IMG/VR virus record: IMGVR_UViG_3300012953_000014
Location: 1-64,000 of that record
Reading direction: 5' to 3' (one strand)
Length of the DNA stretch: 64,000 bases
DNA from: a virus
Part shown: positions 3,266 to 41,210 of the stretch, in pieces
Layout of the letters: the number at the start of each line of letters is the position of its first letter
Numbering within the stretch: the stretch's first letter is position 1
The notes under the pieces: generated by a model
The model's database searches: none
What the model saw: only the letters and a program-made list of their open reading frames with translations
What the model was told of the DNA's origin: nothing
Translations under genes and position numbers: made by a program

Positions 3266-5185
3266 TTAAATACAAATGTTTTGAAAGATATTCCTCAATA
3301 AATCAGTATAACGTGTTGGATCCGGTGGATAAATGTTCACTAGTCTATCTAATTCGTTGTTCACAACATCATCCCACATATAGAAAAGGCTAGTATTAGT
3401 AATGATATACGACTCATACATGTCTCCCGGCATACATTCTCCGACTCGACAGTTTATATTTCTTGTTTGGACTTGTGGCTCTTGAATGCCGACCCAACTT
3501 TGACCAGGTTCATCAGTAACCATGACGATATAGGGGTACGCATCTGCTCGCCATCCAATACCCACAGGATCTGCGGGGTCAGTTAAATTGTACATCACAT
3601 CCCAACTTGGTTCATTACCCCCACCATTACAGGTTAAGCCAAGCAAGATGGAACGGAAGGTCCCCACATCAACTAAAGCAGGCATGGTTCGCAGCTCTTG
3701 AGTTAAATTGCTGTTATTGGGATAAACACCTGGGAAAGCGACCAGTGCGAAGCGATGCTCGGTGGTTTGGAACTGATCCACATATTGTGCGATTCCTTGG
3801 GCAAGGGCTGTGATAAAAGGACACATTGAACCAGATATATCAATAGCGAACACCATGTCCACCTTGTCATGCGGGTTTAGATCTTCGTCTATTGCACCAT
3901 CACAATCATTATCAAGCTGGTCGCATATCTCTTGTTGGGGCGAGACTGCTCCAATGCAAGGCGACCATTGACCGGCAGAACAGGAACTGGTTCCTACTCG
4001 ACACTCTCCCACTCCTGCTGTGGTGGTGTTTCCACAAACTTGTGACATTCCATCGACCACACCATCGCAATCGTCATCCCAGTTGTTACACGTTTCCGGT
4101 GATGTATTAAAGAAGTAGCATGGACCCCATACACCGTATTCATCACATATCTCTACTCCAGCACCACAATCTACAACTTGGTTGGTCGCTGGGTTTATGA
4201 CATTTTGATTACAGATTCTTGCTTGGCCTTCTAAACAGTTGCAACCCTCATCGACTTCGCCATCGCAATCATTATCAAGGCCATCACAAATTTCTGTTTC
4301 TGGCTGTGGTGCGTCACAGTTTTCCCAAGTGCCAGCGTTACACTCCTCAACACCATTGCCACAAGCTGTGGCACAACGTCGAATGATACCCTCATCTACT
4401 GCACCATCGCAGTCATTGTCGGCTCCATCACAGGTTTCAGCTTCAGGATAAATTGCATCAATACATTTTGATTCTCCGCCATCACAAATAGTGCGACCAT
4501 ATTCGCAAATGCCGACTGCTCGACCGGGGCCACATATTGTAAATCTTATATTATCTACAACACCATCACAATCGTCGTCCATTTGGTTGCATGTTTCTGC
4601 ACCTGGTAAGACCTGATTGTTGCATGGACTCCACCCACCATTTATGCAATATTGTTCGCCCTTTTTGCACGAAGTGGTTCCATCCAAAATCACGTTGCTT
4701 GGACCAGACCAACACTCTAAGGGCTTGATATCGTTATCAATACTCTCGTCGCAGTTATTATCTAATCCGTCGCAAGTCTCTGGTGCTCCCGGATGGATGA
4801 AACGTGAGCGATCGTTGCAATCACCTTCACATGTAGTGTATCCATCGTTGTCAAGATCGAAGGGTTCGTCGATCAAGCCATCACAGTTATTATCTAAGCC
4901 ATCACAAACTTCTTCAGTCGGAGGAACAAACCCCACGCACACCTCTTTACCGTCGTCGTCGCATTCAAACTTACCAAACTGGCATTGCCCCGTGGAGTAG
5001 AGCGGGCTATTTTTGAATTCTTCGGCTGAGATGCCGCTCCCATCTTGTGTGATGCCACAAGGATAGTTGATACGACAATACTGTGATAATCCACCGGATT
5101 CATCACAACTCGCACAACCTTGAATCATGGTCGCTACCGCGATTGTGATGAATAATATTTTTCGGTGGGAAAATTTATTTCCCAT
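3266..5185 (-). CDS. Putative lipoprotein with MopE-related Cys-rich repeats and C-terminal vWA domain
   Basis: Signal peptide ending IQG-C; ~7 ExCDGxDNDCDG repeats; MIDAS motif DISGS and later VMVTDE. Confidence 0.8.
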   Translation of the reverse strand: MGNKFSHRKILFITIAVATMIQGCASCDESGGLSQYCRINYPCGITQDGSGISAEEFKNSPLYSTGQCQFGKFECDDDGKEVCVGFVPPTEEVCDGLDNNCDGLIDEPFDLDNDGYTTCEGDCNDRSRFIHPGAPETCDGLDNNCDESIDNDIKPLECWSGPSNVILDGTTSCKKGEQYCINGGWSPCNNQVLPGAETCNQMDDDCDGVVDNIRFTICGPGRAVGICEYGRTICDGGESKCIDAIYPEAETCDGADNDCDGAVDEGIIRRCATACGNGVEECNAGTWENCDAPQPETEICDGLDNDCDGEVDEGCNCLEGQARICNQNVINPATNQVVDCGAGVEICDEYGVWGPCYFFNTSPETCNNWDDDCDGVVDGMSQVCGNTTTAGVGECRVGTSSCSAGQWSPCIGAVSPQQEICDQLDNDCDGAIDEDLNPHDKVDMVFAIDISGSMCPFITALAQGIAQYVDQFQTTEHRFALVAFPGVYPNNSNLTQELRTMPALVDVGTFRSILLGLTCNGGGNEPSWDVMYNLTDPADPVGIGWRADAYPYIVMVTDEPGQSWVGIQEPQVQTRNINCRVGECMPGDMYESYIITNTSLFYMWDDVVNNELDRLVNIYPPDPTRYTDLLRNIFQNICI

Positions 5186-5231: not shown

Positions 5232-5828
5232 TTAAAATCCGAAAGATTTTAGTTCTTTAATAGCTTGACGTGTGTTTTTGTAAAGAATGGTGAGCCCACC
5301 GTTCCCCTTAAACTTACTTGTGTTACTCTCAAAATCATCAATGAGGACTCCAATCTTGCCATTGTATTTGGCGTATGGAGCCTTATCATATCTAATCTGA
5401 ACTCGCTCTTTCGGTAAACCGATGTGGTCCTTTACCCACTTCTTTTTTCCTATGACGGCTTGAAGGTCAGTTGGTTTGGACAAGATGATTGGGTCATATC
5501 TTTCTATGTATTCCCATAACTCTTTTCCACCTGGAAGCCACTCTAGTCCCATCCAAAATCTGCGGTTATCCATCAGAACTCTGTAAAGAAAGTTTCTTGC
5601 CTCTTTCTTAAACAGTTTGTGTGTCTTGTCCAGATGCTCGGAAGTCAATGTTTGACCTTCAAGAACCTCTCGGGCTTTTGCCTGCACTTTTCTGTAGTTA
5701 TCAGAAGCCGATTCTGGTGGTTCTGAATATAGAGCTTCGTTAACTCCACCAACGAGATCAACAAGGACTCCGTCCATGTCACAGAATATTTGATATTTGT
5801 TTGTTATTTCCATAAAATCCATCTCCAA
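5232..5828 (-). CDS. HAD-family 5'(3')-deoxyribonucleotidase-like protein
   Basis: FCDMDGVLVD motif I, ILS, K-x-x-W and LIDD motif IV. Confidence 0.8.
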   Translation of the reverse strand: MEMDFMEITNKYQIFCDMDGVLVDLVGGVNEALYSEPPESASDNYRKVQAKAREVLEGQTLTSEHLDKTHKLFKKEARNFLYRVLMDNRRFWMGLEWLPGGKELWEYIERYDPIILSKPTDLQAVIGKKKWVKDHIGLPKERVQIRYDKAPYAKYNGKIGVLIDDFESNTSKFKGNGGLTILYKNTRQAIKELKSFGF

Positions 5829-6157
5829 CGCGGTCTTATCTGCAAATAGTTTTCAGTCTCATCATGCTTATATGCTTCTTTTTCTGCCCTAATATTATAG
5901 TAAGCTATGATTCCGCTCCTGAAGCGGGTATAGTTTTTAATATAGTCATAAACATACAACACAATGAAACCAATAAAACATGTTTCTAAGAACTGTTGGA
6001 AGTGAATGGTTTCATGTTGTCGGGTCTTCTTTGACATCGTGCCTCGACTGAAGACAACGAACCCTAGAGTGATAGCTCCGATATTTATCGGAGCAACGTA
6101 AGATAATAAACGTGGAACCCAAGAGTTTTCCACAAAGATTGGTTTCCAATTTCTCAT
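5804..6157 (-). CDS. Small membrane protein with HExxH motif (zincin-like)
   Basis: HETIH plus downstream EKEAY; hydrophobic segments. Confidence 0.6.
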   Translation of the reverse strand: MRNWKPIFVENSWVPRLLSYVAPINIGAITLGFVVFSRGTMSKKTRQHETIHFQQFLETCFIGFIVLYVYDYIKNYTRFRSGIIAYYNIRAEKEAYKHDETENYLQIRPRWRWILWK

Positions 6158-6160
6158 GAG

Positions 6161-6706
6161 TTATTTTTTGATTCCGTGCTGGTCCTTGACTTTGAGGACA
6201 CAGGATTCATATTTATCCTTGTCTTTTCTGCCAACAGACTTTGTACAAATCGCCCATGGATTAGGTTTTGCGTCTTCCTCAAGTTCATCTATTACTCTAC
6301 CTGTCTCTCCATGCACTTTGATTAAGTTAATCTTTGGATAATCTTGTTCAAGTTCTCTCCAAGTTTTATCACTATCGTCAATGTGCGTTTCACTTCCAAG
6401 CTCATCTATGATCTTACCTTTATTTTGCCAACTTGTCAAGTGAATTTGTTCTACGGGCAAACTATAATCATTAATAAATGATTGTATTTCTTCTTCAGCG
6501 GATTCAAACCCTGATTCATAGACTTCACTAGGTTTTCTCCTAGAGACGATGTGGATCTTTGCGCCATTATTTGCTAACCTTTTTATCCTATTAATGATAG
6601 GACCGTTGGCAGTGTTGGTGTCCTTCATCTTCAACGTGTTGTCAAAGTCAACAGTCACAACAGATTCATTAAGAAATCTTTTCCATTTTTCTAATAAGAG
6701 TTTCAT
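6161..6706 (-). CDS. HAD-superfamily phosphatase with N-terminal MKLLxExW peptide
   Basis: VDFDNTL, IVSRR, HIDD motifs; C-terminal NPWAICT module. Confidence 0.7.
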   Translation of the reverse strand: MKLLLEKWKRFLNESVVTVDFDNTLKMKDTNTANGPIINRIKRLANNGAKIHIVSRRKPSEVYESGFESAEEEIQSFINDYSLPVEQIHLTSWQNKGKIIDELGSETHIDDSDKTWRELEQDYPKINLIKVHGETGRVIDELEEDAKPNPWAICTKSVGRKDKDKYESCVLKVKDQHGIKK

Positions 6707-7431
6707 TCCTTAAAGTCTTCCGGTGTTTCTAAGCCGGATCTCCTGGTTCTTTTATCTAGTTGTTGCAGCGTTTTGACATTTCCTAGTTGACCCTTGCTCT
6801 TGAGTGTAAAAAGGGCGCTTACAGTATCAGAATCTACTCCTTTGGGAATGGTGTATTCTTGATTAGGTTTGGTTTTTTGAACCAGATTGAGTGCCTGAAT
6901 GAATGAGGGCGATAAGCTCAACAATCCAGCCAAAGCTGCTGACGCGATCACATTCTCCTCAAGACCCTCTTTGTTCATTCTCTTTGTTTTTTCTTTTGAT
7001 GCTTCTTTTCTTTGCTCGGCATACGCAAGAGCTTTCTTTAATCTTGCTTTAACTTTAGGATCTTTAGCGTTTTTATGTGCAGCTCTAACTCTCTGATGAA
7101 TCAAATTGATGACCTGTGATTGTCTTGCATGTGATTTTGATTTAAACGATGCTTTGGATAAAGTGTCTTTGATATCTTGTACGGAAGAGAACTTGACTGA
7201 GACTGTATCTTTTGGGTTCTCATCGGTGTACAGTCTTCTGCTTGAACCCTTTGGTTTCTTGCCTGTTCCTTTTTTGGGTTCTTTTCCCTCTTCAGCCTTT
7301 ACACAATTCCTATATGTTTTTCCAAACATCTCTTTTGTTTTTTGAGTTGGATGAGTTTTGTAACCTTTTTGGCAACGCTCTTCAAGAACCTCTTCTATGA
7401 TTTCTAACAGATTTTGTTCGTTCAGTTTCAC
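6703..7431 (-). CDS. Modular basic protein, putative internal head protein
   Basis: N-terminal MKLNEQNLLEIIEEVLEE followed by short Lys-rich modules. Confidence 0.6.
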   Translation of the reverse strand: MKLNEQNLLEIIEEVLEERCQKGYKTHPTQKTKEMFGKTYRNCVKAEEGKEPKKGTGKKPKGSSRRLYTDENPKDTVSVKFSSVQDIKDTLSKASFKSKSHARQSQVINLIHQRVRAAHKNAKDPKVKARLKKALAYAEQRKEASKEKTKRMNKEGLEENVIASAALAGLLSLSPSFIQALNLVQKTKPNQEYTIPKGVDSDTVSALFTLKSKGQLGNVKTLQQLDKRTRRSGLETPEDFKE

Positions 7432-7475
7432 TTTAATTTAACCTTAAACCTCACGGGTTCTTTTTTGGCGAATGG

Positions 7476-7769
7476 TCAACTCTCTTTAATCTCATCGTCA
7501 GAACCAAAGTAGCGTTCTGGATCAACTTTGATAACTGGGAAGTTCATCAATTCATGCAGCTCTTGGGCAAACGCAAACACAGCATCATGAACTCTGTTTT
7601 CCATATCACTATTTTTATCATACCCAGGCATCAACTTGCTTAACCCATCTTGCATAGCGTCTGCCATCATTTCTGGTCCAGATGGTGAGTTTTCATCATA
7701 ATCATCCTCTGTTAAGTTTGACAGCTCTTCTTTGATGATTTGTTGTAGTTTTTCTTTAGTTATTTTCAT
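7476..7769 (-). CDS. Hypothetical protein with MKITKEKLQQIIKEEL N-terminus
   Basis: ORF with shared N-terminal amphipathic motif. Confidence 0.65.
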   Translation of the reverse strand: MKITKEKLQQIIKEELSNLTEDDYDENSPSGPEMMADAMQDGLSKLMPGYDKNSDMENRVHDAVFAFAQELHELMNFPVIKVDPERYFGSDDEIKES

Positions 7770-8091
7770 TTTTTTTGTTCCCGTTTTGTGGTAAAGACTT
7801 CTCCAGATGGAGAGAACTTAGCCTATCATTCCTTATAATTAGTTTCCTTTCTGTATCATAGATATAAAATACTGTTTTTGTAAGACCAGTGCGTATTATT
7901 CTTGCTTTCTTTACTCCATTAATATAGACGATATCATCGGCATTGTAATCATTTCCAAGAAAGAACATGATTCCCTCAACAAACCTTTGAATGATATTTT
8001 TGAAAGTTAATACTGTGACACCCGCAACAAACATCCAACCATATTGTCCCAATAAATCAGAGACTATCTTTTGTATTTGCTGTTCGGTCAT
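7756..8091 (-). CDS. Small membrane protein resembling the MscS TM/beta domain
   Basis: TM helix followed by YNADDIVYING...IIRTGLTKT, like the MscS F-x-x-GD-x-V-x-I-x-G...IGLR-x-T pattern. Confidence 0.5.
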   Translation of the reverse strand: MTEQQIQKIVSDLLGQYGWMFVAGVTVLTFKNIIQRFVEGIMFFLGNDYNADDIVYINGVKKARIIRTGLTKTVFYIYDTERKLIIRNDRLSSLHLEKSLPQNGNKKNENN

Positions 8092-8093
8092 GG

Positions 8094-9143
8094 CTATTCA
8101 TTCGGGACTAACTTCTTAGTGCGCGTTGCAACTTCTTCTGAGTTTTGGATTGCCGCTCTACCAGATTTTTTAGAGTTTCTTATGAAATACCTATTGATAT
8201 TTAATGATAGTTCTTCTAGTGCGTTGTATACTGAAGTGACATCTTCACCAAGCTGATCAGCATAGTTTGCTGCGATGTTTTTCATTTCCTCTGGCGAGCC
8301 AAAGTTTAAGGTTGCAATGGGTTCAATCTGTGCCACTGTTTTGCCCGTTAGAACTGTTGTTGGGATTGAAAATTTTGTTCCCTTTTTCCATTTCGGATTT
8401 GAATCAATATTGAAATCTCCACCCATGCCTTCGGGTACACCCTCGGTTGCTCCAACAGTGAACTCATAAAAATCTATATTTGTGACGCTCGCATCATCAC
8501 CCATTTTTTTGATAGCGACAAGGTACGGAATGGGCATACCATATTCATTAATGCTTGCCCTCAAATCCTTTAACGAACCTTTGATGGCCTTGCTTCCGCC
8601 CGACGCACCTCCTTTGAAAAACTTCAAACTCATAGGTCTTCCGCTAGCATCTTTAATATCTGCAATGTCGCCGCCTGCATCGCCAGATCTGCCTTGGGTT
8701 GCAATAACTTGTTGTGCATCTGCTCCGAGAAGGGCTGCCACAAACACCTCGAACAAGAAACCTCCGGTGGAAGCATTAAAATCATAAACAATGGAAGTGA
8801 AGATCTCAAGAGCCATCAATCTTGAAAGGATGGTAGAAGCTGCCATTTTTCGACAACTAACGATGTTGTCTCCTTTACAGTTATTTACAAATTCATTGAT
8901 CTTATTAACTTTATTTGAAAAATCACCGCCACGTGCCACTCTGGACAAGAGAGCTTCAATCTCTTTCCTATCCTCCGAACTAGGTTGTCCCCACTGCTCA
9001 GATAGTTTAGGGGTTGGTAGCGTTATTGTTTTCTTGTTTTCCTTTGTTTTTACTTGCGATTTTTGTTCTCGCAAGATACTTGAGCCTTTCTCTTTTTCTT
9101 CTACCAAAAAGTTTTTCCATTTGTGGTTCATATAATCATTCAT
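8094..9143 (-). CDS. Possible PD-(D/E)XK-fold nuclease
   Basis: GFLFE...ADI...MSLK arrangement; N-terminal KWKNFLVEE peptide. Confidence 0.45.
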   Translation of the reverse strand: MNDYMNHKWKNFLVEEKEKGSSILREQKSQVKTKENKKTITLPTPKLSEQWGQPSSEDRKEIEALLSRVARGGDFSNKVNKINEFVNNCKGDNIVSCRKMAASTILSRLMALEIFTSIVYDFNASTGGFLFEVFVAALLGADAQQVIATQGRSGDAGGDIADIKDASGRPMSLKFFKGGASGGSKAIKGSLKDLRASINEYGMPIPYLVAIKKMGDDASVTNIDFYEFTVGATEGVPEGMGGDFNIDSNPKWKKGTKFSIPTTVLTGKTVAQIEPIATLNFGSPEEMKNIAANYADQLGEDVTSVYNALEELSLNINRYFIRNSKKSGRAAIQNSEEVATRTKKLVPNE

Positions 9144-9154
9144 AATCTTTTTCC

Positions 9155-11500
9155 TTATTTACCTAAATATTTTCTCCAAGATTCAAATAGTATCTTATCA
9201 GATGTTTTGGGTTTTTTTGATTCATTTGTTTGCTTAGAGAAGGGCGCGGCACCTTTTTCAATATCTTTCAATAGATCATAATACGCATAAGCTGATTGTT
9301 GTCTGAGCCCGTTTTGGTAAGAACTTTTGTTAAACTCTTCAAGAAACTTTGATGCCCTATACAAATCATCTTCGTTAAAATACAGCAAATCAAAATCCAT
9401 AATTCCATAAACGCCATCAAGTTCAGGCGATAGTCTTTGCCCCTCTTTCTTAACAACAAAATTTTTGAGAGGAAAATCAACTTTCTTGCGGACAAACATT
9501 AGGTTTTCGCGAAGTTCAGTTCCGAACTCTCTTGTCCATAACTGTTTCATAACGTCTTGGTATTCAGCTGGGATCTTCTTGAACTCTTGTAGGTCGGATG
9601 TGATCTTATCTCTTTTCTTCCAAGTAACATTAATTACTTTTTCTTCTGGATTTATTGTCGCTTTAATGCTGTCCAGTTTTTTTAACTTTTCTGGAATATC
9701 TGCTATACGATCTCGAATAACACCTTGCTTTTCTAACCTAGCCCTAACATCATTCATAATAATATCAAATGAATCGTCGGCGTCTTCCATCACTCTTGCC
9801 CAACCCCTCAAACTTCGCAAATTGTTTCGGTAGTAATTAAAATCTGGATAAATATCTGTGCGGTACATACCATCGTTAGTAATCTTGCCATCGGATGGAT
9901 CATAACCGTCGCCAAAGTGGTTGAGCAATGCTCTTTTTGCTGCAATGTCAACTTTGGGCTCCTCGACGGCCCAAGCACCTTGACCTAAAGGGAACGGACT
10001 ATTTGGGTCAGGGTCTGGGTAGTCGCCAAGCTCCTCTGACGTATCAAACGCAAATTCGGTTCGATAGCTAACTGGATCTTCTTCGTTGCCATAATCAACA
10101 TCAGCATTAATAGTAAAGTACTTCATTGAATTGTTTGCGCCGCCAACGATCTCGTCAACCTCTCGCCCAAGTGGATCACCAACATCGCGCTCGATTGCTT
10201 TTTCGTCTTCAGGGTTTGTTCCGATGTCGCCCGCTTGGGACATCAATTCATCTTGTTCAATATTCGTCAAGGTTGAGAACATCGCTGCAAAGATTTTACC
10301 GTCTGACGTGTCTCTATAGGTTCCGCCGTATCTTGTCCATTTTTCGTCAGAAACATCGTTTGCAAGCTCGTCAATGTCACCATAGGCTTTGTCTTGTGAT
10401 TTAAGTGCCCAATCGGTAACAGATTTTAAAAATCCTGGTGGCGCTTTTTTATTACCTTGCGTGTATGATCTTGTTTCAGGAACTGCCAACATTCTTCCAT
10501 CTTCGTCGTGAACAAATTTCCGCAAGCGAACCCTAGAAAATGGGCGCATTCCTGGGACTCCCCGATCGTCATCTGCAAAAATCTCTTCACCACCCTGATC
10601 TAGATCTACATCTTCTGGTTTTGTTTCATCTAAGTCTACATCGAAATACTGCTCAAACTGGGCGCGAGGGATTGAATAGGCAATCGGACCATGACCTCTT
10701 GACTCTGCGACTGCACATTGAAAGTACCCGCCTGTTCGAGAGTGGCATGAACGAATGTCTTCCATATCTGACATTCTCACAACGTCAACTGGATGTCTCG
10801 ACAGGATTGTAACATAAGGATCTTTCTTTGCGAACGCTGCTTGAGGGTTCTCTCGATAGAACTGCGACTTCTCGTTCCAAAACTTTTTAAACTTTGGGAG
10901 ATCTTGTTCGACTCCGAATAAGTCTTCTGTGGAAGAGAACGGCAGAACTGACACGAGTTTCTTTTCCATTGATTCTCTATCGTCCATCGCTTTTTGCAAT
11001 CTCTTGTCCTCTGGATCTGTTGAATCAAATCCTGTTGCGAGAGTAGCAATTTCAGCAGCATAACCACCAGCATCGTTATATTCTTTTTTTACTTTTTCAT
11101 ATTGCTTAATCACATTTCCGATCATATCAAATGCTTTGCCGATCCGAATCTTCTGTTTTTTTGTAACCTGCTCTCCGGCTCGTGGACCTTTTGGGATTAC
11201 TGTTGTCACATCTTTTGTGACTGTCGAATCATCAAAGTTAATTTCATATCCATTAGCCTGAAAAAAACGAACAATCTTTCCAATCATACCTTCAGCTGGT
11301 GAGGGTGGAGGGGTGATCGCTACGCGCTTTTTTCCTCCAAAAAGATTGTCAAATGAATATGCTTCTTCTGGTGCTGTCCTCATCCAGTTTTTAATATACT
11401 CATATTCATTCTCCGAAATCTCGGCGAGGATGTCAAGACGTAGTCTCTCATCTTCGTTTTCGTATAAATGTTTGCGCCAAGCCTTAACAAATGATGCCAT
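9155..11500 (-). CDS. Large hypothetical protein, putative virion cargo
   Basis: 781-aa ORF with WRKHLYE at the N-terminus and LFESWRKYL at the C-terminus. Confidence 0.7.
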   Translation of the reverse strand: MASFVKAWRKHLYENEDERLRLDILAEISENEYEYIKNWMRTAPEEAYSFDNLFGGKKRVAITPPPSPAEGMIGKIVRFFQANGYEINFDDSTVTKDVTTVIPKGPRAGEQVTKKQKIRIGKAFDMIGNVIKQYEKVKKEYNDAGGYAAEIATLATGFDSTDPEDKRLQKAMDDRESMEKKLVSVLPFSSTEDLFGVEQDLPKFKKFWNEKSQFYRENPQAAFAKKDPYVTILSRHPVDVVRMSDMEDIRSCHSRTGGYFQCAVAESRGHGPIAYSIPRAQFEQYFDVDLDETKPEDVDLDQGGEEIFADDDRGVPGMRPFSRVRLRKFVHDEDGRMLAVPETRSYTQGNKKAPPGFLKSVTDWALKSQDKAYGDIDELANDVSDEKWTRYGGTYRDTSDGKIFAAMFSTLTNIEQDELMSQAGDIGTNPEDEKAIERDVGDPLGREVDEIVGGANNSMKYFTINADVDYGNEEDPVSYRTEFAFDTSEELGDYPDPDPNSPFPLGQGAWAVEEPKVDIAAKRALLNHFGDGYDPSDGKITNDGMYRTDIYPDFNYYRNNLRSLRGWARVMEDADDSFDIIMNDVRARLEKQGVIRDRIADIPEKLKKLDSIKATINPEEKVINVTWKKRDKITSDLQEFKKIPAEYQDVMKQLWTREFGTELRENLMFVRKKVDFPLKNFVVKKEGQRLSPELDGVYGIMDFDLLYFNEDDLYRASKFLEEFNKSSYQNGLRQQSAYAYYDLLKDIEKGAAPFSKQTNESKKPKTSDKILFESWRKYLGK

Positions 11501-11502
11501 GT

Positions 11503-11964
11503 TTATTCCTCAAATTTATTCTTATCTTGCCAATCGTGTGACACAGAGTCTTCATCAATGGGGCCGCCTGCGGCCCAAGTGTAGCAGGTTCTCGCTGAGT
11601 GGCATTTAAAATGGTGCATCCAACAATAACCAAGGCGGCCTTCGTCATCTGATACTGGTCCCGGCATACACTCATCCATCCTTTTTGAGATGTCAAAGGC
11701 CACGCAGTTTGAGCAGTTTGATTTTTTGGCGGCATCAACGCTGGTGTCCCAATGTTCTGCTGCCTTTTCATAGTAATCACCAGGCTCAAGAACATTCAAG
11801 GGGCCATACTTAACATGTTCCGCTTTAATGGCTGCGTTGCGGTTTTTTGTATTTAACTCTATGTCTTGGGTTGCGGGGGGACAAATGTATTTCTCAACCT
11901 TCTCCAGGCCGAGTTTTATATTTTCTTTGACGAACCTGCGCCATTGTTCCATCAGCAACTTCAT
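11503..11964 (-). CDS. Cys-rich protein with possible HiPIP-like metal cluster
   Basis: CSNCVAF...GYC...CYTW; N-terminal MKLLMEQWRRFVKE. Confidence 0.55.
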   Translation of the reverse strand: MKLLMEQWRRFVKENIKLGLEKVEKYICPPATQDIELNTKNRNAAIKAEHVKYGPLNVLEPGDYYEKAAEHWDTSVDAAKKSNCSNCVAFDISKRMDECMPGPVSDDEGRLGYCWMHHFKCHSARTCYTWAAGGPIDEDSVSHDWQDKNKFEE

Positions 11965-11971
11965 TTGTCAC

Positions 11972-13843
11972 TTACCACTTTTTGCAAGACCAATATCTTG
12001 CCTTGGTTTTAGGACCAGGGTTAGCACAGTTATGTCTTGCTCTGAAAGATTTTCTTCGGGCGGGGTTTGATTTTTTGATCCTCATGTTTGGATCTCCATA
12101 GTTGACCTTCTTCACGTTGCCCGTCTTAGGATCTTTCACATACACTTTAAATTTTTTAACATCGCCTCGCATTGGCTTGTTTAACTTAACTTTTCTTCCT
12201 CGATATTCTGCCTCTTCGATAACGTCATCCCAAAATTCTATATTCTCTGCCACAGTTCCATCATCATAGGTTGCGTCTGTTATATGAAAGTATGTCTCTG
12301 CAATCTTTCCAAACTCGTCCATAACGATTTCTTTTAGTGTATCTATTGATAAATCCATTTGACCCACTCCTTCGCTTTTTTTGCCCCATTTCTTTCCCTT
12401 ACCTTTAGTTCCACAGGCAGAGGGTGTTGGGCGACACGATGGGTATTTCGCTCTCTTTTCGCCCTCTTTTCTTCCGCAAGATTTGCATGTTTTTTTGCCT
12501 GTTTTCTTATCTTTACGACAAGTGTTGCAATCAACCCAACCTTTGGATTTGCCTTTGCCGCCTTGTCTTGAAAACCAACCGTGAAGACCGGACTCTTTCT
12601 CTTTTGAATAGTCGGTTTTTGATTTTTTCTTCTCATCGACGAGATTATCAATCTGGTCTACTTGTTTTTTGTGAAGATTTGAAGAATCCGTTGACATTTT
12701 AGCAACCTTTGCGTGCTTTTCAGCAGATTTTTTTAGTTGAATCTTTATCTTCTTTAAAGTTTTTACTTCTGAACCTGTTAGATCTAAATTTTGTTCATTT
12801 TGACGCATGGCTTTCATACCCCTTTTACGACTGGCTGCATTCCTGTCCACGACTTCTGAATCGTAGGTGTCTCTTACGTCATCTTCCTTCAGTCCTTTCC
12901 AGATTTTACCTCGTCGACACTTGACAACTGCACCTGAAGCGTAAGCAGATGGCCAAACATCATATTTTCTCTTTGCTATTCGCGTACAACGATCACCCTT
13001 CTTCTTCTTTTCGTCAACAGACATCATCGCGTCATAAGCATCCCTCTTGAGATCAGACAACTTGGTTAAGTAACCTTGGTTCCTAAGTGATTTGAACGCA
13101 AGATTCTCCACTGAATATTCACCGGCAGACTTTAGTCCAGATTTTCTTAACTTCTTAAGTTTATCTGTGATCATTTCTCCGCGTTCGAGTGCTTCTTCAT
13201 GCTTGCCTTGTTCGCTCAATTCAATCGCTATATCTATTTGATCCATCAATGAATCTGCTTTAACTGAGATCGCCTCTTCGTCTACATCTATTTCTTTATA
13301 GCTAGGCTTAGTAATCCATTCATCATTAAGCACAGAATAGACACCAGTAGATGTGTGGGGCTCGGAGTCGTCCTGAACATAAGCCTCGACTTCGTAACCC
13401 TTTATTCGTATATCGTGAACATAATTCCAAAGTGCTTTGACTGCATTGAAATATCTACGCACAAGCTCAGTGTCTTCATTGACATCTTTGAAATCAATTA
13501 GGATGTGAAGATCTATGTCAGATAAATCAGAGTAATTGTAGTTTGCCAACGAACCCGTGAAAGTGATGTCTTTGAGTTCTGCATCTGCTGCTCTTGTTGG
13601 TTCAATAAACTTTTTAGCAATCTCCAACAACTTGTCCCTAATGTCGGACTTTAACTTTTCTCCATCCCAAATGTCTTGATTGAGTTCTTGTTTTGGTCGG
13701 ATGACAGCTGGAACTTGGACATTCTCTTCTTCATTAACGTGCCTTCTCCAACCCTCAAGAATGTATTTTATATTATTTGCTCCACCCACAACTACTTCTA
13801 ACTCCTTATCAGTCAACTCGCCCTCTTCGTTTGGCATATTCAT
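11972..13843 (-). CDS. Pol-beta-like nucleotidyltransferase fused to several basic Cys-containing modules
   Basis: TGSLANYNYSDLSDIDLH (GS...DxD) and EAYVQD; C-terminal Lys/Arg-rich modules ending ARYWSCKKW. Confidence 0.75.
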   Translation of the reverse strand: MNMPNEEGELTDKELEVVVGGANNIKYILEGWRRHVNEEENVQVPAVIRPKQELNQDIWDGEKLKSDIRDKLLEIAKKFIEPTRAADAELKDITFTGSLANYNYSDLSDIDLHILIDFKDVNEDTELVRRYFNAVKALWNYVHDIRIKGYEVEAYVQDDSEPHTSTGVYSVLNDEWITKPSYKEIDVDEEAISVKADSLMDQIDIAIELSEQGKHEEALERGEMITDKLKKLRKSGLKSAGEYSVENLAFKSLRNQGYLTKLSDLKRDAYDAMMSVDEKKKKGDRCTRIAKRKYDVWPSAYASGAVVKCRRGKIWKGLKEDDVRDTYDSEVVDRNAASRKRGMKAMRQNEQNLDLTGSEVKTLKKIKIQLKKSAEKHAKVAKMSTDSSNLHKKQVDQIDNLVDEKKKSKTDYSKEKESGLHGWFSRQGGKGKSKGWVDCNTCRKDKKTGKKTCKSCGRKEGEKRAKYPSCRPTPSACGTKGKGKKWGKKSEGVGQMDLSIDTLKEIVMDEFGKIAETYFHITDATYDDGTVAENIEFWDDVIEEAEYRGRKVKLNKPMRGDVKKFKVYVKDPKTGNVKKVNYGDPNMRIKKSNPARRKSFRARHNCANPGPKTKARYWSCKKW

Positions 13844-14021
13844 TCTGTCTATTAATTAGTTCGCAAGTGTCGTTTAGGTCAATAGATTTAGGTATTTCAC
13901 AAATAGGAAGCAACCCATGAAGAAATATAATAGTCCCGCGAAAGATTAACTGCAAACCTATTGTACCAGCAAACACAAGATGACTTAAATAAGTTTCTCC
14001 ATTTTCTTTAAGGTGTTTCAT
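13809..14021 (-). CDS. Small membrane-associated protein (DUF6356-like)
   Basis: HLKENGETYLSHLVFA...LHGLLP pattern. Confidence 0.55.
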   Translation of the reverse strand: MKHLKENGETYLSHLVFAGTIGLQLIFRGTIIFLHGLLPICEIPKSIDLNDTCELINRQNEYAKRRGRVD

Positions 14022-14338
14022 TAAAATGTCTCCTGCTCTCCATCTTCATAAGTTATGATAGTTTTGTTTGCAGGGTGGGGAAGGATGTGAACCTTGATAA
14101 AATCATCCATTGAATCAAACACAGCAATACCACCGCGAGGTGGTGGATATAACCAGTGGATGATTGCTTGGCCGGTCGCCAGCTTTGCACCCTCGATTAC
14201 CACACCATCACCGGACACTCCGGATTCATCTACCTGTCTAAACACTGTAAATGAGCGAATTCCTCGTGGTGCAAGTTTGGGTAAGGGTTGGGGCTTCAGT
14301 TCTTGTAACTGTTCCAATTCTTTCTTTTTTGAAGACAT
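14021..14338 (-). CDS. Conserved phage hypothetical protein
   Basis: RQVDESGVSGDGVVIEG...W motif. Confidence 0.65.
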   Translation of the reverse strand: MSSKKKELEQLQELKPQPLPKLAPRGIRSFTVFRQVDESGVSGDGVVIEGAKLATGQAIIHWLYPPPRGGIAVFDSMDDFIKVHILPHPANKTIITYEDGEQETF

Positions 14339-14341
14339 TTT

Positions 14342-15310
14342 TCAACCCCCAGGCGCATTTGGTGGAGCACTGCCCTTGTAACCAATGGGTGCGTCTTTCC
14401 ACCCTGTTGGTTTGACCCTGTTTTTACCACCACGTGTGTAGGCTCCAACTTGTCTCTTGTAGTTTGCTCGAACCCATTTTTGCCAATCGGCCTCGTTCAG
14501 CTCTTGTCCTGATAAAAACTTAGACAACATGGGTCGCACACTCTGAACGCTGCCATCCATATCCTCTTCTCGGGCTGAGACAAGAAAGAAAGAATCTCCA
14601 AACAACTCATTGTACGGATCTTTGTTTTTTTGAACAGCATTCCAAGATTTTTCGATTGCCTTTGGCTCCAAGCCACGGCCACCGGACTGTAATCGTTTCT
14701 CTTGCCGGGCGATGGCATCCTCCAAGGGAATGTCCACAAAAATCATACCGGTTTCATAACCCATATCTTCAAGAGTTTTTTTCTGGTTCCTGATTCGGGC
14801 GAAAGCTCCACCGGTTCCATCAATAATGAAGCTTTTTCCTTCATCGGAAATTTGAGCCTGTTTTGCTTTGGCTGATTTTTGAGCTTGTGCAAATAGTTTT
14901 GCTTGTTTAACTATTTTTTCACGTTCGGGATCATATTGGGTTTTTGCTGAAGATAGCTCCTCTGAGGGCTCAAGCTCTTGGGCTTGTGCATACATTTGCA
15001 TAAGAGTATCGTGATCAATCTTTTCTTCACCCATTTCAAAGTTTAGAACATTGAAAACCACATTGCGTAATCTTTCGCGTGCTTCAGTATAATCATCCTT
15101 TATTTTTTTAATATTTTTTCCAAGGCCAGCTTTTTCAAGGGCTGGCTCATAAAAATCATCTGGGTTAATGACTTCCATGTCGTCAAGATTCATCTTATTA
15201 ATGACTGTTGATTTGCCAGCTCCTGGTGAACCTGCCATAAAGATTGCTTTAGGTGGAGTGCTTGATTCTTCATTCAAATACTTCCTCCAACTTTCCATTA
15301 GTAGTTTCAT
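14342..15310 (-). CDS. Zeta-toxin-like P-loop kinase
   Basis: MAGSPGAGKS, INPDD, FIIDGTG and lid-type R-x-x-x-R; N-terminal MKLLMESWRKYLNEE. Confidence 0.75.
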   Translation of the reverse strand: MKLLMESWRKYLNEESSTPPKAIFMAGSPGAGKSTVINKMNLDDMEVINPDDFYEPALEKAGLGKNIKKIKDDYTEARERLRNVVFNVLNFEMGEEKIDHDTLMQMYAQAQELEPSEELSSAKTQYDPEREKIVKQAKLFAQAQKSAKAKQAQISDEGKSFIIDGTGGAFARIRNQKKTLEDMGYETGMIFVDIPLEDAIARQEKRLQSGGRGLEPKAIEKSWNAVQKNKDPYNELFGDSFFLVSAREEDMDGSVQSVRPMLSKFLSGQELNEADWQKWVRANYKRQVGAYTRGGKNRVKPTGWKDAPIGYKGSAPPNAPGG

Positions 15311-15311
15311 A

Positions 15312-15527
15312 TCATTTCTCTTTCAGAAACTTAGCCAACTCTTTCTTTTGTTTTGAGTCTAAAGTCTCTTTCAAAATATCTTTCACCGTATTAAAAGACG
15401 CTTCAATCATCTGTTTTCTGTCCACGTCACAATAAGGGCAATTTGTAAAAACCCCTTGGAGGCGACCGTCCAAACATACAGAACAAGAAACCTTAACATA
15501 TAACTTAAGGCTTTCTTCGTCTTCCAT
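15312..15527 (-). CDS. Small zinc-finger protein
   Basis: CSVC...CPYC. Confidence 0.65.
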   Translation of the reverse strand: MEDEESLKLYVKVSCSVCLDGRLQGVFTNCPYCDVDRKQMIEASFNTVKDILKETLDSKQKKELAKFLKEK

Positions 15528-15534
15528 TATAACA

Positions 15535-15542
15535 TAAATAGT
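15535..15542 (-). promoter_or_regulatory. ACTATTTA putative late promoter heading the cargo cassette
   Basis: Recurring motif, 7 nt before the ATG at 15527. Confidence 0.6.
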
Positions 15543-15566: not shown

Positions 15567-15600
15567 AAAAAAGGTGCCTCACGCAAATGCAAGGCACCTT
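15567..15600 (-). terminator. Intrinsic terminator downstream of hsp20
   Basis: aaggtgcct...aggcacctt hairpin followed by U-tract on the minus strand. Confidence 0.65.
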
Positions 15601-15630: not shown

Positions 15631-16038
15631 TTATCTAATGTCAATCGTTCTTGGTTTGGCAGATTCTTGTTTCGGTAGATCTACCAACAATACGCCATTT
15701 TTATATGAAGCCGAAATATTTTCAATATCGACATCAGCTGGAATAACATATGATTTTGAATACTTAGTTGCGTATGTATGAGTTTGTTTTTTCTCGCTAG
15801 CATCGTAACTGACTGTTAGTTGGTTTCCCTCTAGTGTGATATTGAAATCTTTTTTCTCCAATCCCGGTGCAATCAAAGAAATCTGATACTTGTCTTCAAG
15901 ATTCCTGACAAATGGCTTGTGATAATCGCTGGTTTCTTTAACCAATGGTGTGGTTAAAAACTCATCAAAGCCGAAAAGCTTGTCAAGAATATCTTTGTTG
16001 TTGAATAATGTTAATGAATTCATTATTTTTCCCTCCAT
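15631..16038 (-). CDS. Small heat-shock protein (Hsp20/alpha-crystallin)
   Basis: APGLEKKDFNI...ISASYKNGVLLVDLPK. Confidence 0.92.
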   Translation of the reverse strand: MEGKIMNSLTLFNNKDILDKLFGFDEFLTTPLVKETSDYHKPFVRNLEDKYQISLIAPGLEKKDFNITLEGNQLTVSYDASEKKQTHTYATKYSKSYVIPADVDIENISASYKNGVLLVDLPKQESAKPRTIDIR

Positions 16039-20772: not shown

Positions 20773-22347
20773 TCACTCTTTTGCCTCAACAATAGCATAA
20801 TCAGTTAACAATAATGTTGATGCTGCGGAGGCAGCATTTTGCAAGGCACAACGGACAACCTTAAATGGATCAATGATGCCATAAGCGAACATATTCACCA
20901 TTTCACCGGTAGCAACGTTTAGGCCAGATTCACTATTTTTATGGTTCTCTACCTTGTCTAGGTAAATGTCTGGTGATAGGCCAGCGTTAGAAACCATTTG
21001 TCTAAACGGTTCTCTGATTGCCTCTTTTAAAATGTCAACTCCAAGTTGCTGGGTTGGGTTTTCTGCTTCGACAAACAACTTGTTTGATACCCTCAAAAGT
21101 GCTGACGAACCGCCAGCAATGATGCCTTCTTGTTGTGCGGAACTTACTGCTTCGAGTGCATCTTCAACCCGATGTTTTTTCTCAGTCATCTCTACTTCTG
21201 TTAAACCACCAACCTTAATGATTGCGACAGCTGATGCAAGACGAGTTATCCTTTCTTGAATCTTTTCACACTCTGAAATGCTTGACTCTCCGGTTATTTG
21301 AACCTTTAGGGATTCAATTCTCTTCTCCACCTCCTCATCGTCCTGGTCTCCGCCGACGATGGTTGTAGAAAACTTGCTTGATTCTATGGTTTGGGCTTTG
21401 CCAAAATGCTCAAGCTTAACAGATCTTAGTTGAATGCCGCTATCTCTTGAAACAAATGTTGCTCCCACAGAGATTGCTAAGTCAGAAAGAATATTCCTTC
21501 TCTCCTCTCCATATCTTGGAGCCTTGATAGCTGCAACTTTCATCGAACCTTTCATCGCGTTCATGATCATGGCAGCTAGGGCTTGACCAGAAACATCCTC
21601 GGCGATGATGATAAATGGCCTTCCATCTCTTGCTGCAAGTTCAAGGCATGGGAGGATATCATCAATGGTTGAGATACTCCGATCTGTAACGAGAATCAAG
21701 CAGTCGTCATGGCGCATTGCTCCTCGGCGCTCGTCAGTGATAAAGGAGTTGGCCAGTAGTCCAGAATCAAAACGGAAACCTTCTGATAACTCTAATGAAG
21801 TTTCATTGGACTTCGCTTCTTGGATCGATATGGCACCATCTTTTCCAACTTGGTCGACAGCTGTTCCAATCAACTTTCCGATCCCCTTATCTCCATTCGC
21901 AGAAATAGTTGCAATCTGCTCAATCTCCTCTTTCGTCGAGACGGGCTTTGAAAGTTCTTGTAAGTTCTGAACCAACTCTTCTGTTGCCTGATCAATACCT
22001 CTTTTAAGCTCAATGGGTGAGACGTTGTTTGCCAAATGAACTTGAGCTTTCGACAAAATGGCTCGGGCCAATACAGTAGAAGTCGTTGTTCCATCACCTG
22101 CGGTACTGTTCGTTGCCTCACTTGCTTGCTTGATTACTTGGGCTCCTAAATTCTGAAAAGGATCATCAAGTTCAACGAACTTTGCAACAGTCACACCATC
22201 TTTCGTGATGATAGGCTTTAAGTCTTTGCCTTTGATAATAACATTGCGGCCTCGTGGTCCCAATGTTGCACCGACGGCGTCCGCGAGGATGTCTGCCCCC
22301 TCCATTATTGATTCATTAAGTTTACGTTTTGAGCGAAATTGTTTCAT
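20773..22347 (-). CDS. groEL: Chaperonin GroEL
   Basis: TLGPRGRNV, ITKDGVTVAK, AGDGTTT, GIIDPFKV. Confidence 0.97.
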   Translation of the reverse strand: MKQFRSKRKLNESIMEGADILADAVGATLGPRGRNVIIKGKDLKPIITKDGVTVAKFVELDDPFQNLGAQVIKQASEATNSTAGDGTTTSTVLARAILSKAQVHLANNVSPIELKRGIDQATEELVQNLQELSKPVSTKEEIEQIATISANGDKGIGKLIGTAVDQVGKDGAISIQEAKSNETSLELSEGFRFDSGLLANSFITDERRGAMRHDDCLILVTDRSISTIDDILPCLELAARDGRPFIIIAEDVSGQALAAMIMNAMKGSMKVAAIKAPRYGEERRNILSDLAISVGATFVSRDSGIQLRSVKLEHFGKAQTIESSKFSTTIVGGDQDDEEVEKRIESLKVQITGESSISECEKIQERITRLASAVAIIKVGGLTEVEMTEKKHRVEDALEAVSSAQQEGIIAGGSSALLRVSNKLFVEAENPTQQLGVDILKEAIREPFRQMVSNAGLSPDIYLDKVENHKNSESGLNVATGEMVNMFAYGIIDPFKVVRCALQNAASAASTLLLTDYAIVEAKE

Positions 22348-36148: not shown

Positions 36149-36444
36149 AAGAAATATCCCAATATAAATGAGTTTGTAACCAAAGAAGCAAAAAGAGACC
36201 AAGCCAAAAACTTTAACATTCGATCCCTTGCCCTTATTGAATCCGCCAAGATTATATATGATTCTTCGTTTTTTTGTATAATATCTTTTTCTATCCTATT
36301 CACTTCATTATCCAGTCTTTGTGAAATCTCACCAATAACTTCATTTCCAATTTTTTGTCTTTCTTGCTTATCTTTTTCTTTTTGTGCAGCTGCTTTTAAC
36401 ATTGCAGCACTATGAAAATCTCGACTAAAGCCACCTTGAGGCAT
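36145..36444 (-). CDS. Coiled-coil protein with C-terminal TM helix
   Basis: ORF with hydrophobic C-terminus. Confidence 0.6.
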   Translation of the reverse strand: MPQGGFSRDFHSAAMLKAAAQKEKDKQERQKIGNEVIGEISQRLDNEVNRIEKDIIQKNEESYIILADSIRARDRMLKFLAWSLFASLVTNSFILGYFL

Positions 36445-36872
36445 TATCCTACTCCTTGTGAACCGCTCCAGTTATGAAACAGTTCTTTTGCGTCAATACT
36501 TGTTAAACCTGCAACAATGGATGCTGTGGCGTTTAAAGAGCCACCAGTTGGACTGACTCTCATATAAACTTCCTTGACTCTCCAATCGGCAGAATAAGAT
36601 TCTTGATTTGATAAAATAACCCAATTGTTATTTTCCGCTCCATTAACTCCATTTTGGGAAAACCCTACTCTCATATCCACTTCATTTGAACCATCAGGTC
36701 CAGAATTTTTTATGGTGATAAAGCGGGTTACGTTTGGTAAACTGATTTTTACAACCGTATTATCAGATGGAATATCGATTGATGATGATAAATAAGGTTG
36801 CGCACTTGCTTGGTACGATCCAACATTACCTACGCCCGCTCTATGATCAAAATATTGTTTAGCTACTGTCAA
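36444..36872 (-). CDS. Putative virion structural protein
   Basis: Beta-rich ORF preceded by ACTATTTA (36895-36902). Confidence 0.55.
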   Translation of the reverse strand: MTVAKQYFDHRAGVGNVGSYQASAQPYLSSSIDIPSDNTVVKISLPNVTRFITIKNSGPDGSNEVDMRVGFSQNGVNGAENNNWVILSNQESYSADWRVKEVYMRVSPTGGSLNATASIVAGLTSIDAKELFHNWSGSQGVG

Positions 36873-40135: not shown

Positions 40136-40855
40136 CTACTCTGCTTCTGTCTTCTCGCTTTCATCGCTTATATTTGGTTTGGCACAACTTGGGTGAAAGC
40201 GATAGATTACGTCTTGTTTGCCATATTTTTGAACAAAATCTTTTGGAGCATAATCGGGATTGAAGTCATACCTCAAATACTCCTCAAAACCTAAATCTTC
40301 ATACAATCTTGATAAAAAACCATCAAAGTGATCCAAATAGCACCCTCCGTTGGAAATAGCGGATTTCATAAGCATTTTGCCAATCCCGCCGACTCCGGAC
40401 TCATTATTGTGAACCGCAACTACCTCTGATCTTCCAAATTCTTGATTATCTGTTACTGGATTTGTATATTGCTTTAGGGCGAAGCCAATGTTTTTTCCAG
40501 GGAGCTTAAACAACTCCATCTTGGACAACTCGCCTGTTGAATATTTAGTAAGCATTTCTGGCTTATCAGATCTCGACAGAGAGTCAAGAAACTCCTTCGG
40601 ACCAACTTCCTCATACTCGTTTTTGTTTATTAAATCAATAACTTCTTTTGTCTTCTCAGAATCTACCTCTTTCTCATCCAGTGAGAACATTTCTTTAATG
40701 AGGTATTCATTATACATTCTCTTCTCATAAGACAGATATCCAGAAGGAGACACGTGAGACTCCCACAAGTTTTGATGATATGCTCTTTTAGAATACTTTT
40801 TAATCTGTTCAGAGACTATGTTTTTTAATTCTTTTAACCCTATCTTTTTACTCAT
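40136..40855 (-). CDS. GNAT-like protein with N-terminal amphipathic motif (likely start MSKKIG)
   Basis: GIGKMLMKSAI...LDHFDGFLSRLYEDLGF. Confidence 0.55.
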   Translation of the reverse strand: MSKKIGLKELKNIVSEQIKKYSKRAYHQNLWESHVSPSGYLSYEKRMYNEYLIKEMFSLDEKEVDSEKTKEVIDLINKNEYEEVGPKEFLDSLSRSDKPEMLTKYSTGELSKMELFKLPGKNIGFALKQYTNPVTDNQEFGRSEVVAVHNNESGVGGIGKMLMKSAISNGGCYLDHFDGFLSRLYEDLGFEEYLRYDFNPDYAPKDFVQKYGKQDVIYRFHPSCAKPNISDESEKTEAE

Positions 40856-41210
40856 CAATAACCCCAACAACATAGTTCTGATGTACTATATGGTATTGCT
40901 TAGTTTGAATGGTGACTTCTTCAATCATTCTCTTGTCTACTACTAAAGATATATCATCATTATTTTTGGCAGATGTTGTAAACACATCATCCATTGTTCC
41001 GGTTTGCGTTACCCATGTTTGTCGATCCTTGTTTAGGTTAAGTAAAAAAGTTTCACAATCGGACGAGGCACAAATAAATCTAACTTGACCATATCTTTCC
41101 TTATCCACTGTTTCAACCCCTTCAGGAATCAACACACCTGATGTTTGTTTCTCTGGGTGCTTGATCTTTTCTACCAAGATATGTTTGTTAAATGGTTTAA
41201 ACTTGCACAT
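40848..41210 (-). CDS. groES: Co-chaperonin GroES-like protein
   Basis: FKPFNKHILVE...TSGVLIP...YHIVHQNYVVGVI. Confidence 0.75.
   Translation of the reverse strand: MCKFKPFNKHILVEKIKHPEKQTSGVLIPEGVETVDKERYGQVRFICASSDCETFLLNLNKDRQTWVTQTGTMDDVFTTSAKNNDDISLVVDKRMIEEVTIQTKQYHIVHQNYVVGVIDE

Follow-up and report, generated by a model that had tools for sequence, protein, structure and literature searches.

A gene cassette with two recurrent N-terminal leader peptides in an uncultured marine Far-T4 phage: a candidate capsid-targeting propeptide system

The stretch analyzed in this study (the window) comprises the first 64 kb of a viral contig of 156,635 bp (IMG/VR record IMGVR_UViG_3300012953_000014), almost all genes of which are located on the minus strand. 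A cassette within this window (positions 6161-15542) encodes otherwise unrelated proteins, eight of which carry one of two short peptides, referred to here as W-type and L-type leaders, and these leaders represent the subject of the present work. Genes on the contig specify a sheath, tube, portal, terminase, and major capsid protein of T4 type, a prohead protease of gp21 type, and, furthermore, a polymerase of DnaE type, a DnaB helicase, and GroEL. The nearest capsid proteins are those of Flavobacterium phage immuto, Microcystis phage Mel-JY01, and Rhodothermus phage RM378, and the phage is an uncultured marine T4-like myovirus belonging to the 'Far-T4' lineage (Roux et al. 2015, PMC4360716), whose cultured members are Rhodothermus phage RM378 and Flavobacterium phage immuto.

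The cassette and its flanks, listed from high to low coordinates, contain the following features (aa, amino acids; nt, nucleotides; ORF, open reading frame; pI, isoelectric point):

15571..15600, minus strand: intrinsic-terminator-like hairpin (12-bp stem with 6 G-C pairs, T-run) after the Hsp20 gene
15535..15542, minus strand: promoter-like motif ACTATTTA, 15 nt ahead of the first cassette ORF
15312..15527, minus strand: 71-aa Cys-rich (zinc-ribbon-like) ORF, first gene of the unit, without a leader
14342..15310, minus strand: 322-aa predicted P-loop kinase (Zeta_toxin/AAA_33) with the W leader MKLLMESWRKYLNE (nt 15269-15310)
14021..14338, minus strand: 105-aa protein (phrog_7499), without a leader
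13809..14021, minus strand: 70-aa hydrophobic protein, without a leader
11972..13843, minus strand: 623-aa fusion protein of five parts, the modules of which are separate leader-bearing genes in other phages
nt 13781-13819, minus strand: part 1 of the 623-aa protein, double-glycine-leader-like extension ELTDKELEVVVGG
nt 13727-13771, minus strand: part 2 of the 623-aa protein, W motif (residues 25-39)
Parts 3 and 4 of the 623-aa protein: nucleotidyltransferase module (phrog_36119), then a basic Cys-rich linker
nt 12314-12358, minus strand: part 5 of the 623-aa protein, putative relic L-like peptide MDLSIDTLKEIVMDE ahead of a phrog_7595 domain
11503..11964, minus strand: 153-aa Cys-rich protein with the W leader MKLLMEQWRRFVKE (nt 11923-11964)
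9155..11500, minus strand: 781-aa protein of unknown fold with the degenerate W leader MASFVKAWRKHLYE (nt 11459-11500)
8094..9143, minus strand: 349-aa protein with the short W leader MNDYMNHKWKNFLVEE (nt 9096-9143), a disordered linker, and a nuclease-like domain
7756..8091, minus strand: 111-aa protein with a hydrophobic segment, without a leader
7476..7769, minus strand: 97-aa acidic protein with the L leader MKITKEKLQQIIKEEL (nt 7722-7769; 46.6 bits)
6703..7431, minus strand: 242-aa basic protein (pI 10) with the L-type leader MKLNEQNLLEIIEEVLEE (nt 7378-7431) and a GTG start
6161..6706, minus strand: 181-aa HAD-like phosphatase with the W leader MKLLLEKWKRFLNE (nt 6665-6706)
5804..6157, minus strand: 117-aa membrane protein without a leader, with two hydrophobic segments and a HExxH motif (HETIH, nt 6002-6016)
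5232..5828, minus strand: 198-aa 5'(3')-deoxyribonucleotidase-like protein without a leader, its family being W-tagged in other phages

Judged from its sequence, the cassette is a putative late-type transcription unit with six W and two L leader genes, including those for a PNK/zeta-like kinase, a nucleotidyltransferase fusion, a probable PD-(D/E)xK nuclease-like protein, a HAD phosphatase, and proteins without functional assignment. The hairpin at 15571-15600 would insulate this unit from upstream transcription, and the 117-aa protein at its downstream end may represent a small membrane metalloprotease.

The consensus of the W-type leader is M-K-L-L-x-E-x-W-[RK]-[RK]-[FY]-[LV]-x-E, and that of the L-type leader is M-K-[LI]-T-K-x-x-L-x-x-I-I-K-E-E; a common register is given by Met1-Lys2, hydrophobic residues at positions 3/4, 8, 11, and 12, and Glu14. 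By means of a strict regular expression, the W motif was detected in 7 out of 167 likely genes and in none of the ~700 rejected ORFs, its Trp being residue 8 or 9 in six genes and residue 32 in 11972-13843. Six of the seven genes lie inside 6161-15310, in agreement with the initial annotation, which had described a W-type peptide on six otherwise unrelated proteins of the cassette; the seventh is located at genome positions 88813-89163. The L-type pattern was found in seven genes, all with Leu at residue 8, namely 6703-7431 and 7476-7769 inside the window and 71897-72952, 73555-74271, 81709-82014, 82029-82385, and 86065-86445 elsewhere in the genome. In total, about 1 in 12 (~8%) of the genome's genes start with a leader. 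All peptides first quoted were recovered in their places on minus-strand ORFs, the scan of the whole proteome yielded more leaders (seven of each type) than had been noted at first, and the L-type assignments of 6703-7431 and 7476-7769 were retained. A further L-type peptide, claimed for 40136-40873, was dropped, since its score of -3.9 lies inside the shuffled null.

The leader scoring matrices were built from independent viral contigs, with shuffled proteomes serving as the null. Four W leaders reached 24-46 bits, compared to a shuffled-proteome maximum of 5, and the seven L leaders reached 10-47 bits, compared to a shuffled maximum of 7.5. The degenerate W copies of 8094-9143, 9155-11500, and 88813-89163 are not above the null by the matrix alone; canonical leaders are present on their homologues and, in the case of the L type, on the homologues of the 242-aa protein. 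Position 12 is occupied by L, I, or V and position 14 by Glu in at least 98% of the leaders, and conservation of the W leader amounts to 4.2 bits at Glu14 and ~1 bit at residue 15. Synonymous positions vary among the leader copies within the genome, indicating that the peptide, and not the DNA, is conserved. Because the protein bodies are unrelated and synonymous sites differ, chance, paralogy, and a DNA-level repeat were rejected as origins of the likeness.

Searching IMG/VR with a degenerate DNA pattern for the W leader revealed at least 120 viral loci, and the same pattern was found in six short contigs of metagenome-assembled genomes (MAGs) among 185,579 bacterial and archaeal genomes (596 Gb). 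The W leader is virus-specific and almost absent from cellular genomes. Among the matches listed, 138 distinct W proteins were grouped into 83 clusters with unrelated bodies, and the domains behind the leader comprise P-loop/zeta-like kinases, NUDIX, protein kinase, GNAT, GDSL, HD, deoxyribonucleotidase, and ParB-like domains. Furthermore, L-type genes (66 genes, consensus MKITKSQLKQIIKEEL) occurred in 27 of the 120 W loci listed. In each of three complete relatives, 14-18 leader genes are present in cassettes that combine W and L types, and the cassettes are hypervariable between relatives. Within the family of the 349-aa protein, the leader varies by phage, being W, short-W, or L, and four clusters mix W and L leaders. 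The two types appear to form one functional class that is interchangeable on homologous proteins. A tblastn search of 50,697 cultured-phage records with a 21-residue W leader returned nothing useful, and no relevant paper was found in the full-text literature with the motif strings or for capsid-targeting sequences (CTS) in marine phages. As far as a term search opens up the Far-T4 genome paper (PMC4360716), internal proteins, proheads, sequence motifs, and such leaders go unmentioned there, the sole N-terminal mention being the Gp23 domain.

The larger cassette proteins bear traces of how leader genes have been rearranged. The 623-aa protein represents a fusion of modules found elsewhere as separate W- or L-tagged genes, with an L-like peptide at the junction; the internal L-like peptide LSIDTLKEIVMDE, proposed as an L-type copy at first, scored below the matrix threshold, while its context supports a relic leader. 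The C-terminal peptide ILFESWRKYLGK of the 781-aa protein (nt 9158-9193), likewise noted before, is present and can be regarded as a leader remnant. These two proteins, together with the hypervariability of the cassettes, would be in line with shared gene starts that mainly constitute a recombination module for cassette exchange, the peptide being a passenger. This explanation is considered highly improbable: selection is visible on the amino acids, and the many synonymous differences within the genome leave little DNA identity for recombination. Recombination could account for the spread of the leaders, but not for the keeping of the peptide.

A double-glycine-like extension was found only in the 623-aa protein and two kinase homologues, no search for a C39 peptidase having been made, and neither the W nor the L leaders as such fall under the double-glycine leader class. 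In two kinase homologues, P0058 and P0065, ELSDEELEQVVGG precedes a complete MKILLESWR leader. Among the evidence on the 781-aa protein, L006 starts with MKLLFESWRKYLGE, and the internal EIVGGANN of the 781-aa protein (nt 10130-10153) matches VVGGANN. For this protein and for the HAD-like protein 6161-6706, no function was obtained from atlas and PDB sequence searches. All seven members of the family of the 153-aa Cys-rich protein possess the W leader.

By its Walker A motif (GSPGAGKS, residues 27-34) and fold, the product of 14342-15310 is predicted to be a zeta/AAA_33-type P-loop kinase (Pfam PF06414, E 1.6e-11; PF13671, E 1.4e-7), with a weak PDB match to the polynucleotide kinase (PNK) Pnkp1. 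In the AlphaFold model, computed with alignments, its core (predicted local distance difference test, pLDDT, >90) starts at residue 21, and the leader forms a helix (residues 2-13, pLDDT <50) that is unpacked on the domain. For the 349-aa protein, the leader was likewise modeled as helical, with ~30 disordered residues after it. The domain behind it is probably PD-(D/E)xK nuclease-like; structural matches comprise PvuII, Eco15I-N, NhoI, DpnI, Hjc, and RecU (Z 5.3-7.2; Foldseek E 0.012 or worse), the best being PvuII with Z 7.2, compared to a convincing threshold of Z 8 (134 residues aligned, root-mean-square deviation 4.3). Asp162 and Lys174 are invariant, and the motif is SLK instead of ExK. 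The modeled leader helices, with their low-confidence placement and linker, suggest a detachable helix. The W leader, furthermore, shows strong amphipathicity, its hydrophobic moment of 0.55-0.60 ranking in the top 2-3% of shuffles.

A helix of this type might also act on its own protein without a common receptor, namely as a self-association or solubility helix, as an inhibitory propeptide silencing harmful enzymes, or as a sequence promoting efficient translation starts. Highly expressed genes often have Lys as their second codon and a start rich in A, the helix could self-bundle, and the nuclease-like protein and the zeta-like kinase could harm the producing cell. Only a slim chance was assigned to this possibility. 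Trp8, Glu6, and Glu14 are near-invariant over the 83 unrelated W clusters among the matches listed, which points to one shared reader, a fixed 14-residue peptide is not required for translation effects, and the helix makes no contact with the domain in the models. Moreover, action on the own protein leaves unexplained the linkage to the protease locus.

The gp21-family prohead protease is encoded at genome positions 72957-73562 (phrog_207, E 2e-57), and both genes flanking it begin with L leaders. A gp21-type protease was encoded by nine out of the nine complete W-bearing viral genomes examined; the 39 mid-size W contigs examined (30-86 kb) were all fragments of large genomes (12-49% complete), with no small complete genome among them. 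In T4, the gene order is 20-67-68-21-22-23, the core-protein genes 67, 68, and 22 being located beside the protease gene 21, at the positions that leader genes occupy here. Across 61 related loci, each covering ~5 kb on either side of the protease, 34 of the 39 L-type genes start at most 1.7 kb from the protease, ten of them exactly at its stop codon. The density of leader genes amounted to 6.2 per 100 kb in protease loci, compared to 1.4 in helicase control loci. The leader genes flanking the protease represent non-homologous insertions into a conserved backbone. In the relatives G005 and G015, the protease is flanked by W-type genes, and head genes (portal, protease, or capsid) were present in 24 of the 120 W loci listed, which is about twofold the ~13 expected. 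A conserved 140-aa gene after the protease, for which a search of cultured phages gave no match, has an L-like peptide at its start, and diverged L-like and W-like leaders were detected on the genes adjoining the protease of immuto, the leader-bearing products being gp069, gp072, gp076, gp077, and gp080.

Both leader types end in hydrophobic-x-Glu, which is the cleavage motif of gp21. The T4 major capsid protein gp23 is cleaved after Glu65 (PMC9026906), and its site FLTE/A aligns with LLRE/A in the capsid protein of this phage and with IVSE/A in that of immuto; the N-terminus of the protease itself contains KYLLRE. A W leader mimicking the conserved LLNKW helix at the N-terminal end of the capsid propeptide was suggested by eye, but the leader matrix misses the capsid protein, and the idea was set aside as speculation.

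Regarding transcription, the terminator hairpin after the Hsp20 gene is followed by ACTATTTA and then by the cassette. The initial annotation had placed this motif ahead of the cassette and of tail genes, which is borne out by its position at 15542 and its occurrence before the tube and sheath genes; it also precedes scaffold-like and head-core genes. The motif has a strand bias of 22:3 in this genome and of 22:0, 28:2, and 18:3 in the relatives G002, G005, and G007, respectively, and 10 of the 14 sites at most 60 nt from a start codon fall into the structural region (60-93 kb). We regard it as a candidate promoter of late or structural type, distinct from TATAAATA of T4.

Several other features of the contig were recorded alongside. 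Hsp20, GroEL, and a GroES-like protein are encoded by the phage at window positions 15631-16038, 20773-22347, and 40848-41210, respectively. Window positions 3266-5185 encode a 639-aa protein whose N-terminus resembles that of a lipoprotein and which contains numerous CDGxDNDCDG repeats. Three paralogues share a GNVGSYQ motif, one being located in the replication region (window 36444-36872) and two in the head module (genome 69975-70385 and 70385-70903); two of these copies are preceded by the ACTATTTA motif, and in relatives the family has a conserved position just after the protease.

With a probability of roughly 55%, the leaders constitute a capsid-targeting propeptide system, the Far-T4 counterpart of the T4 CTS. 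The L type taken by itself is a likely case, and for the W type by itself the chances are close to even or slightly below. By analogy with T4, we infer packaging, docking onto the core, cleavage at Glu, and injection. The W and L leaders would be interchangeable forms of one N-terminal propeptide, a helix of ~14-16 residues with hydrophobic positions 1, 3/4, 8, 11, and 12 and Glu at position 14. This helix would dock its protein onto the prohead core during assembly, possibly through bundling with core proteins that themselves bear leaders, and the gp21-type prohead protease would then cut the leader after the terminal hydrophobic-x-Glu, so that the freed protein would stay in the head and enter the next host together with the DNA. 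Among the tagged proteins, the nuclease-like protein and the kinases are plausible candidates for a role as effectors.

In its widest and more doubtful form, which is put forward tentatively, the proposal is that an abundant lineage of marine Far-T4 phages uses a portable code of 14-16 residues in two dialects, loading a large, fast-exchanged set of enzymes into the head for delivery with the DNA, and that tagged proteins co-assemble with core proteins bearing the same leader. The loaded set would comprise nuclease-like proteins, PNK/zeta-type and protein kinases, NUDIX proteins, HD hydrolases, acetyltransferases, and dozens of proteins without assigned function, corresponding to ~8% of the genes of each genome.

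A number of observations weigh against capsid targeting. Of the two leader types, the L type alone was found in the 80 closest protease loci, and the link between W leaders and the head therefore rests on the W/L swaps, the two relatives with W genes beside the protease, and the head-gene excess of approximately twofold. Leader genes show no enrichment of ACTATTTA ahead of them (12.7%, compared to 11.3% before other ORFs of the same loci), and the timing of the motif is read solely from its downstream genes. Judged by hydrophobic moment, the L leader lacks significant amphipathicity, some W motifs are preceded by an extra N-terminal extension, and the T4 CTS has no significant sequence similarity to the leaders. 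T4 internal proteins are small and basic, which does not hold uniformly for the tagged proteins, and no published virion proteome of any leader-bearing phage was found in the literature. Furthermore, a relative, Pelagibacter phage HTVC008M, possesses a syntenic enzyme cassette without leaders (gp126-gp134; L129 3767-11718), which encodes a ligase-like KxDG protein, a P-loop kinase, a nucleotidyltransferase, a phrog_7595-like small protein, and a deoxyribonucleotidase, and resembles a module for the repair of RNA or nucleotides. The enzymes therefore need no tag for their basic function, and HTVC008M, in which no leaders were found, is unsuitable as a cultured model. Finally, the recognizable tagged proteins are mostly nucleotide and RNA-end enzymes, which would also fit a hub in the cytoplasm.

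This last possibility represents the main rival, unlikely as it is held to be: the leader would be a docking helix for a non-capsid hub that gathers nucleotide and RNA-end enzymes in the infected cell, such as a replication or nucleotide-synthesis factory or the phage GroEL/GroES/Hsp20 chaperones. A hub is favored by the enrichment of the identifiable proteins for kinases, NUDIX proteins, HD phosphohydrolases, deoxyribonucleotidases, and HAD phosphatases, by the retention of untagged enzymes in HTVC008M, by the position of the cassette adjoining Hsp20 and near GroEL and replication genes, and by the leader being a free amphipathic helix. However, GroEL and Hsp20 are each near W genes in only 2 of the 120 loci listed, and many tagged proteins are small with unassigned function, nuclease-like, or protein kinases. 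The clustering of L-type genes at the ends of the protease gene, the stop of conservation at a protease-type hydrophobic-x-Glu, and the W/L swaps on one protein family are left unexplained by a hub. The modular, CTS-like address peptides of the initial annotation are thereby partly and indirectly supported, namely by the protease linkage, the hydrophobic-x-Glu end, the W/L swaps, the more than 80 families behind the W leader, the virus specificity, and the structural-type unit. Replication proteins, whose tagging had been named as a possible refutation, carried the leader in none of the cases identified in this genome.

If capsid targeting holds true, the proteins that these uncultured ocean phages carry into their hosts, which in most phages are invisible without virion proteomics, could be listed from sequence alone, and dozens of candidate enzymes for the first minutes of host takeover or for anti-defence would be named. 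The CTS principle of T4 would be old and widespread and would see far heavier use outside the T-even phages, with an injected proteome much larger than that of T4 and readable from sequence, and the leaders would provide a natural, compact protein-loading tag for phage capsids. Should this interpretation fail, more than 80 unrelated families still share a near-invariant, virus-specific tag at the N-terminus, which calls for a common reader.

Among known systems, the cargo-loading peptides of encapsulins resemble the leaders in that a short terminal peptide addresses unrelated enzymes into an HK97-fold shell. They differ in being usually C-terminal and uncleaved and in binding the shell directly, with no scaffold or protease involved, and no sequence relation exists. 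In the giant phages phiKZ, 201phi2-1, and SPN3US, a protease related to gp21 processes many proteins of the head interior after Glu (PMC5694885, PMC10052503), and paralogues with identical N-terminal 15-mers occur, as in gp53/gp54 of SPN3US (MANFVKSKLARESVE; PMC5694885). The processed propeptide MANFVKSKLARESVE shared by these two ejection proteins of the Salmonella phage resembles MASFVKAWRKHLYE of the 781-aa protein, a similarity that may be due to chance. In contrast to the leaders described here, the cleavage motif of the giant phages is A/S/G-x-E, their propeptides are often longer than 100 residues, and no single portable tag has been defined.

The closest comparison is offered by the T4 CTS, which has the sequence MKTYQEFIAE and was reportedly described for the IPI, IPII, and IPIII internal proteins by Mullaney and Black in 1996. 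As a side observation, gp071 of immuto (L142 10677-11759), encoded just upstream of the prohead protease, contains KEHFIAEAR, which we take to be close to the end of the T4 CTS (QEFIAEA). The CTS of IPI/IPII/IPIII and the N-terminal propeptides of Alt and gp24 have been reviewed (PMC9026906, PMC3012670); in IPIII, the first 10 residues suffice for targeting, residues 4 and 7 directing targeting and residues 8 and 10 processing (PMC9026906). Common to both systems are a short N-terminal peptide on otherwise unrelated, fast-evolving proteins, a hydrophobic-x-Glu end, a phage-encoded gp21-family protease, tagged genes in hypervariable loci, precursor core proteins encoded beside gene 21, and a spacing of two residues between the hydrophobic residue and Glu (8/10 in T4, 12/14 here). 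The leaders differ from the CTS in their length (14-16 residues, compared to 10 in T4), in the presence of two interchangeable classes, and in the extra N-terminal extension preceding some of them. Far more proteins are tagged (~14 per genome and at least 83 clusters across the lineage), and many are enzymes of 150-800 residues, as opposed to the small basic proteins of T4; packaging and cleavage would be their counterparts of the T4 process. In sequence, only the Met-Lys start, Glu6, and the x-Glu end are shared, and given that the likeness is limited to these few residues, the leaders would be CTS-like in action rather than members of the CTS by sequence.

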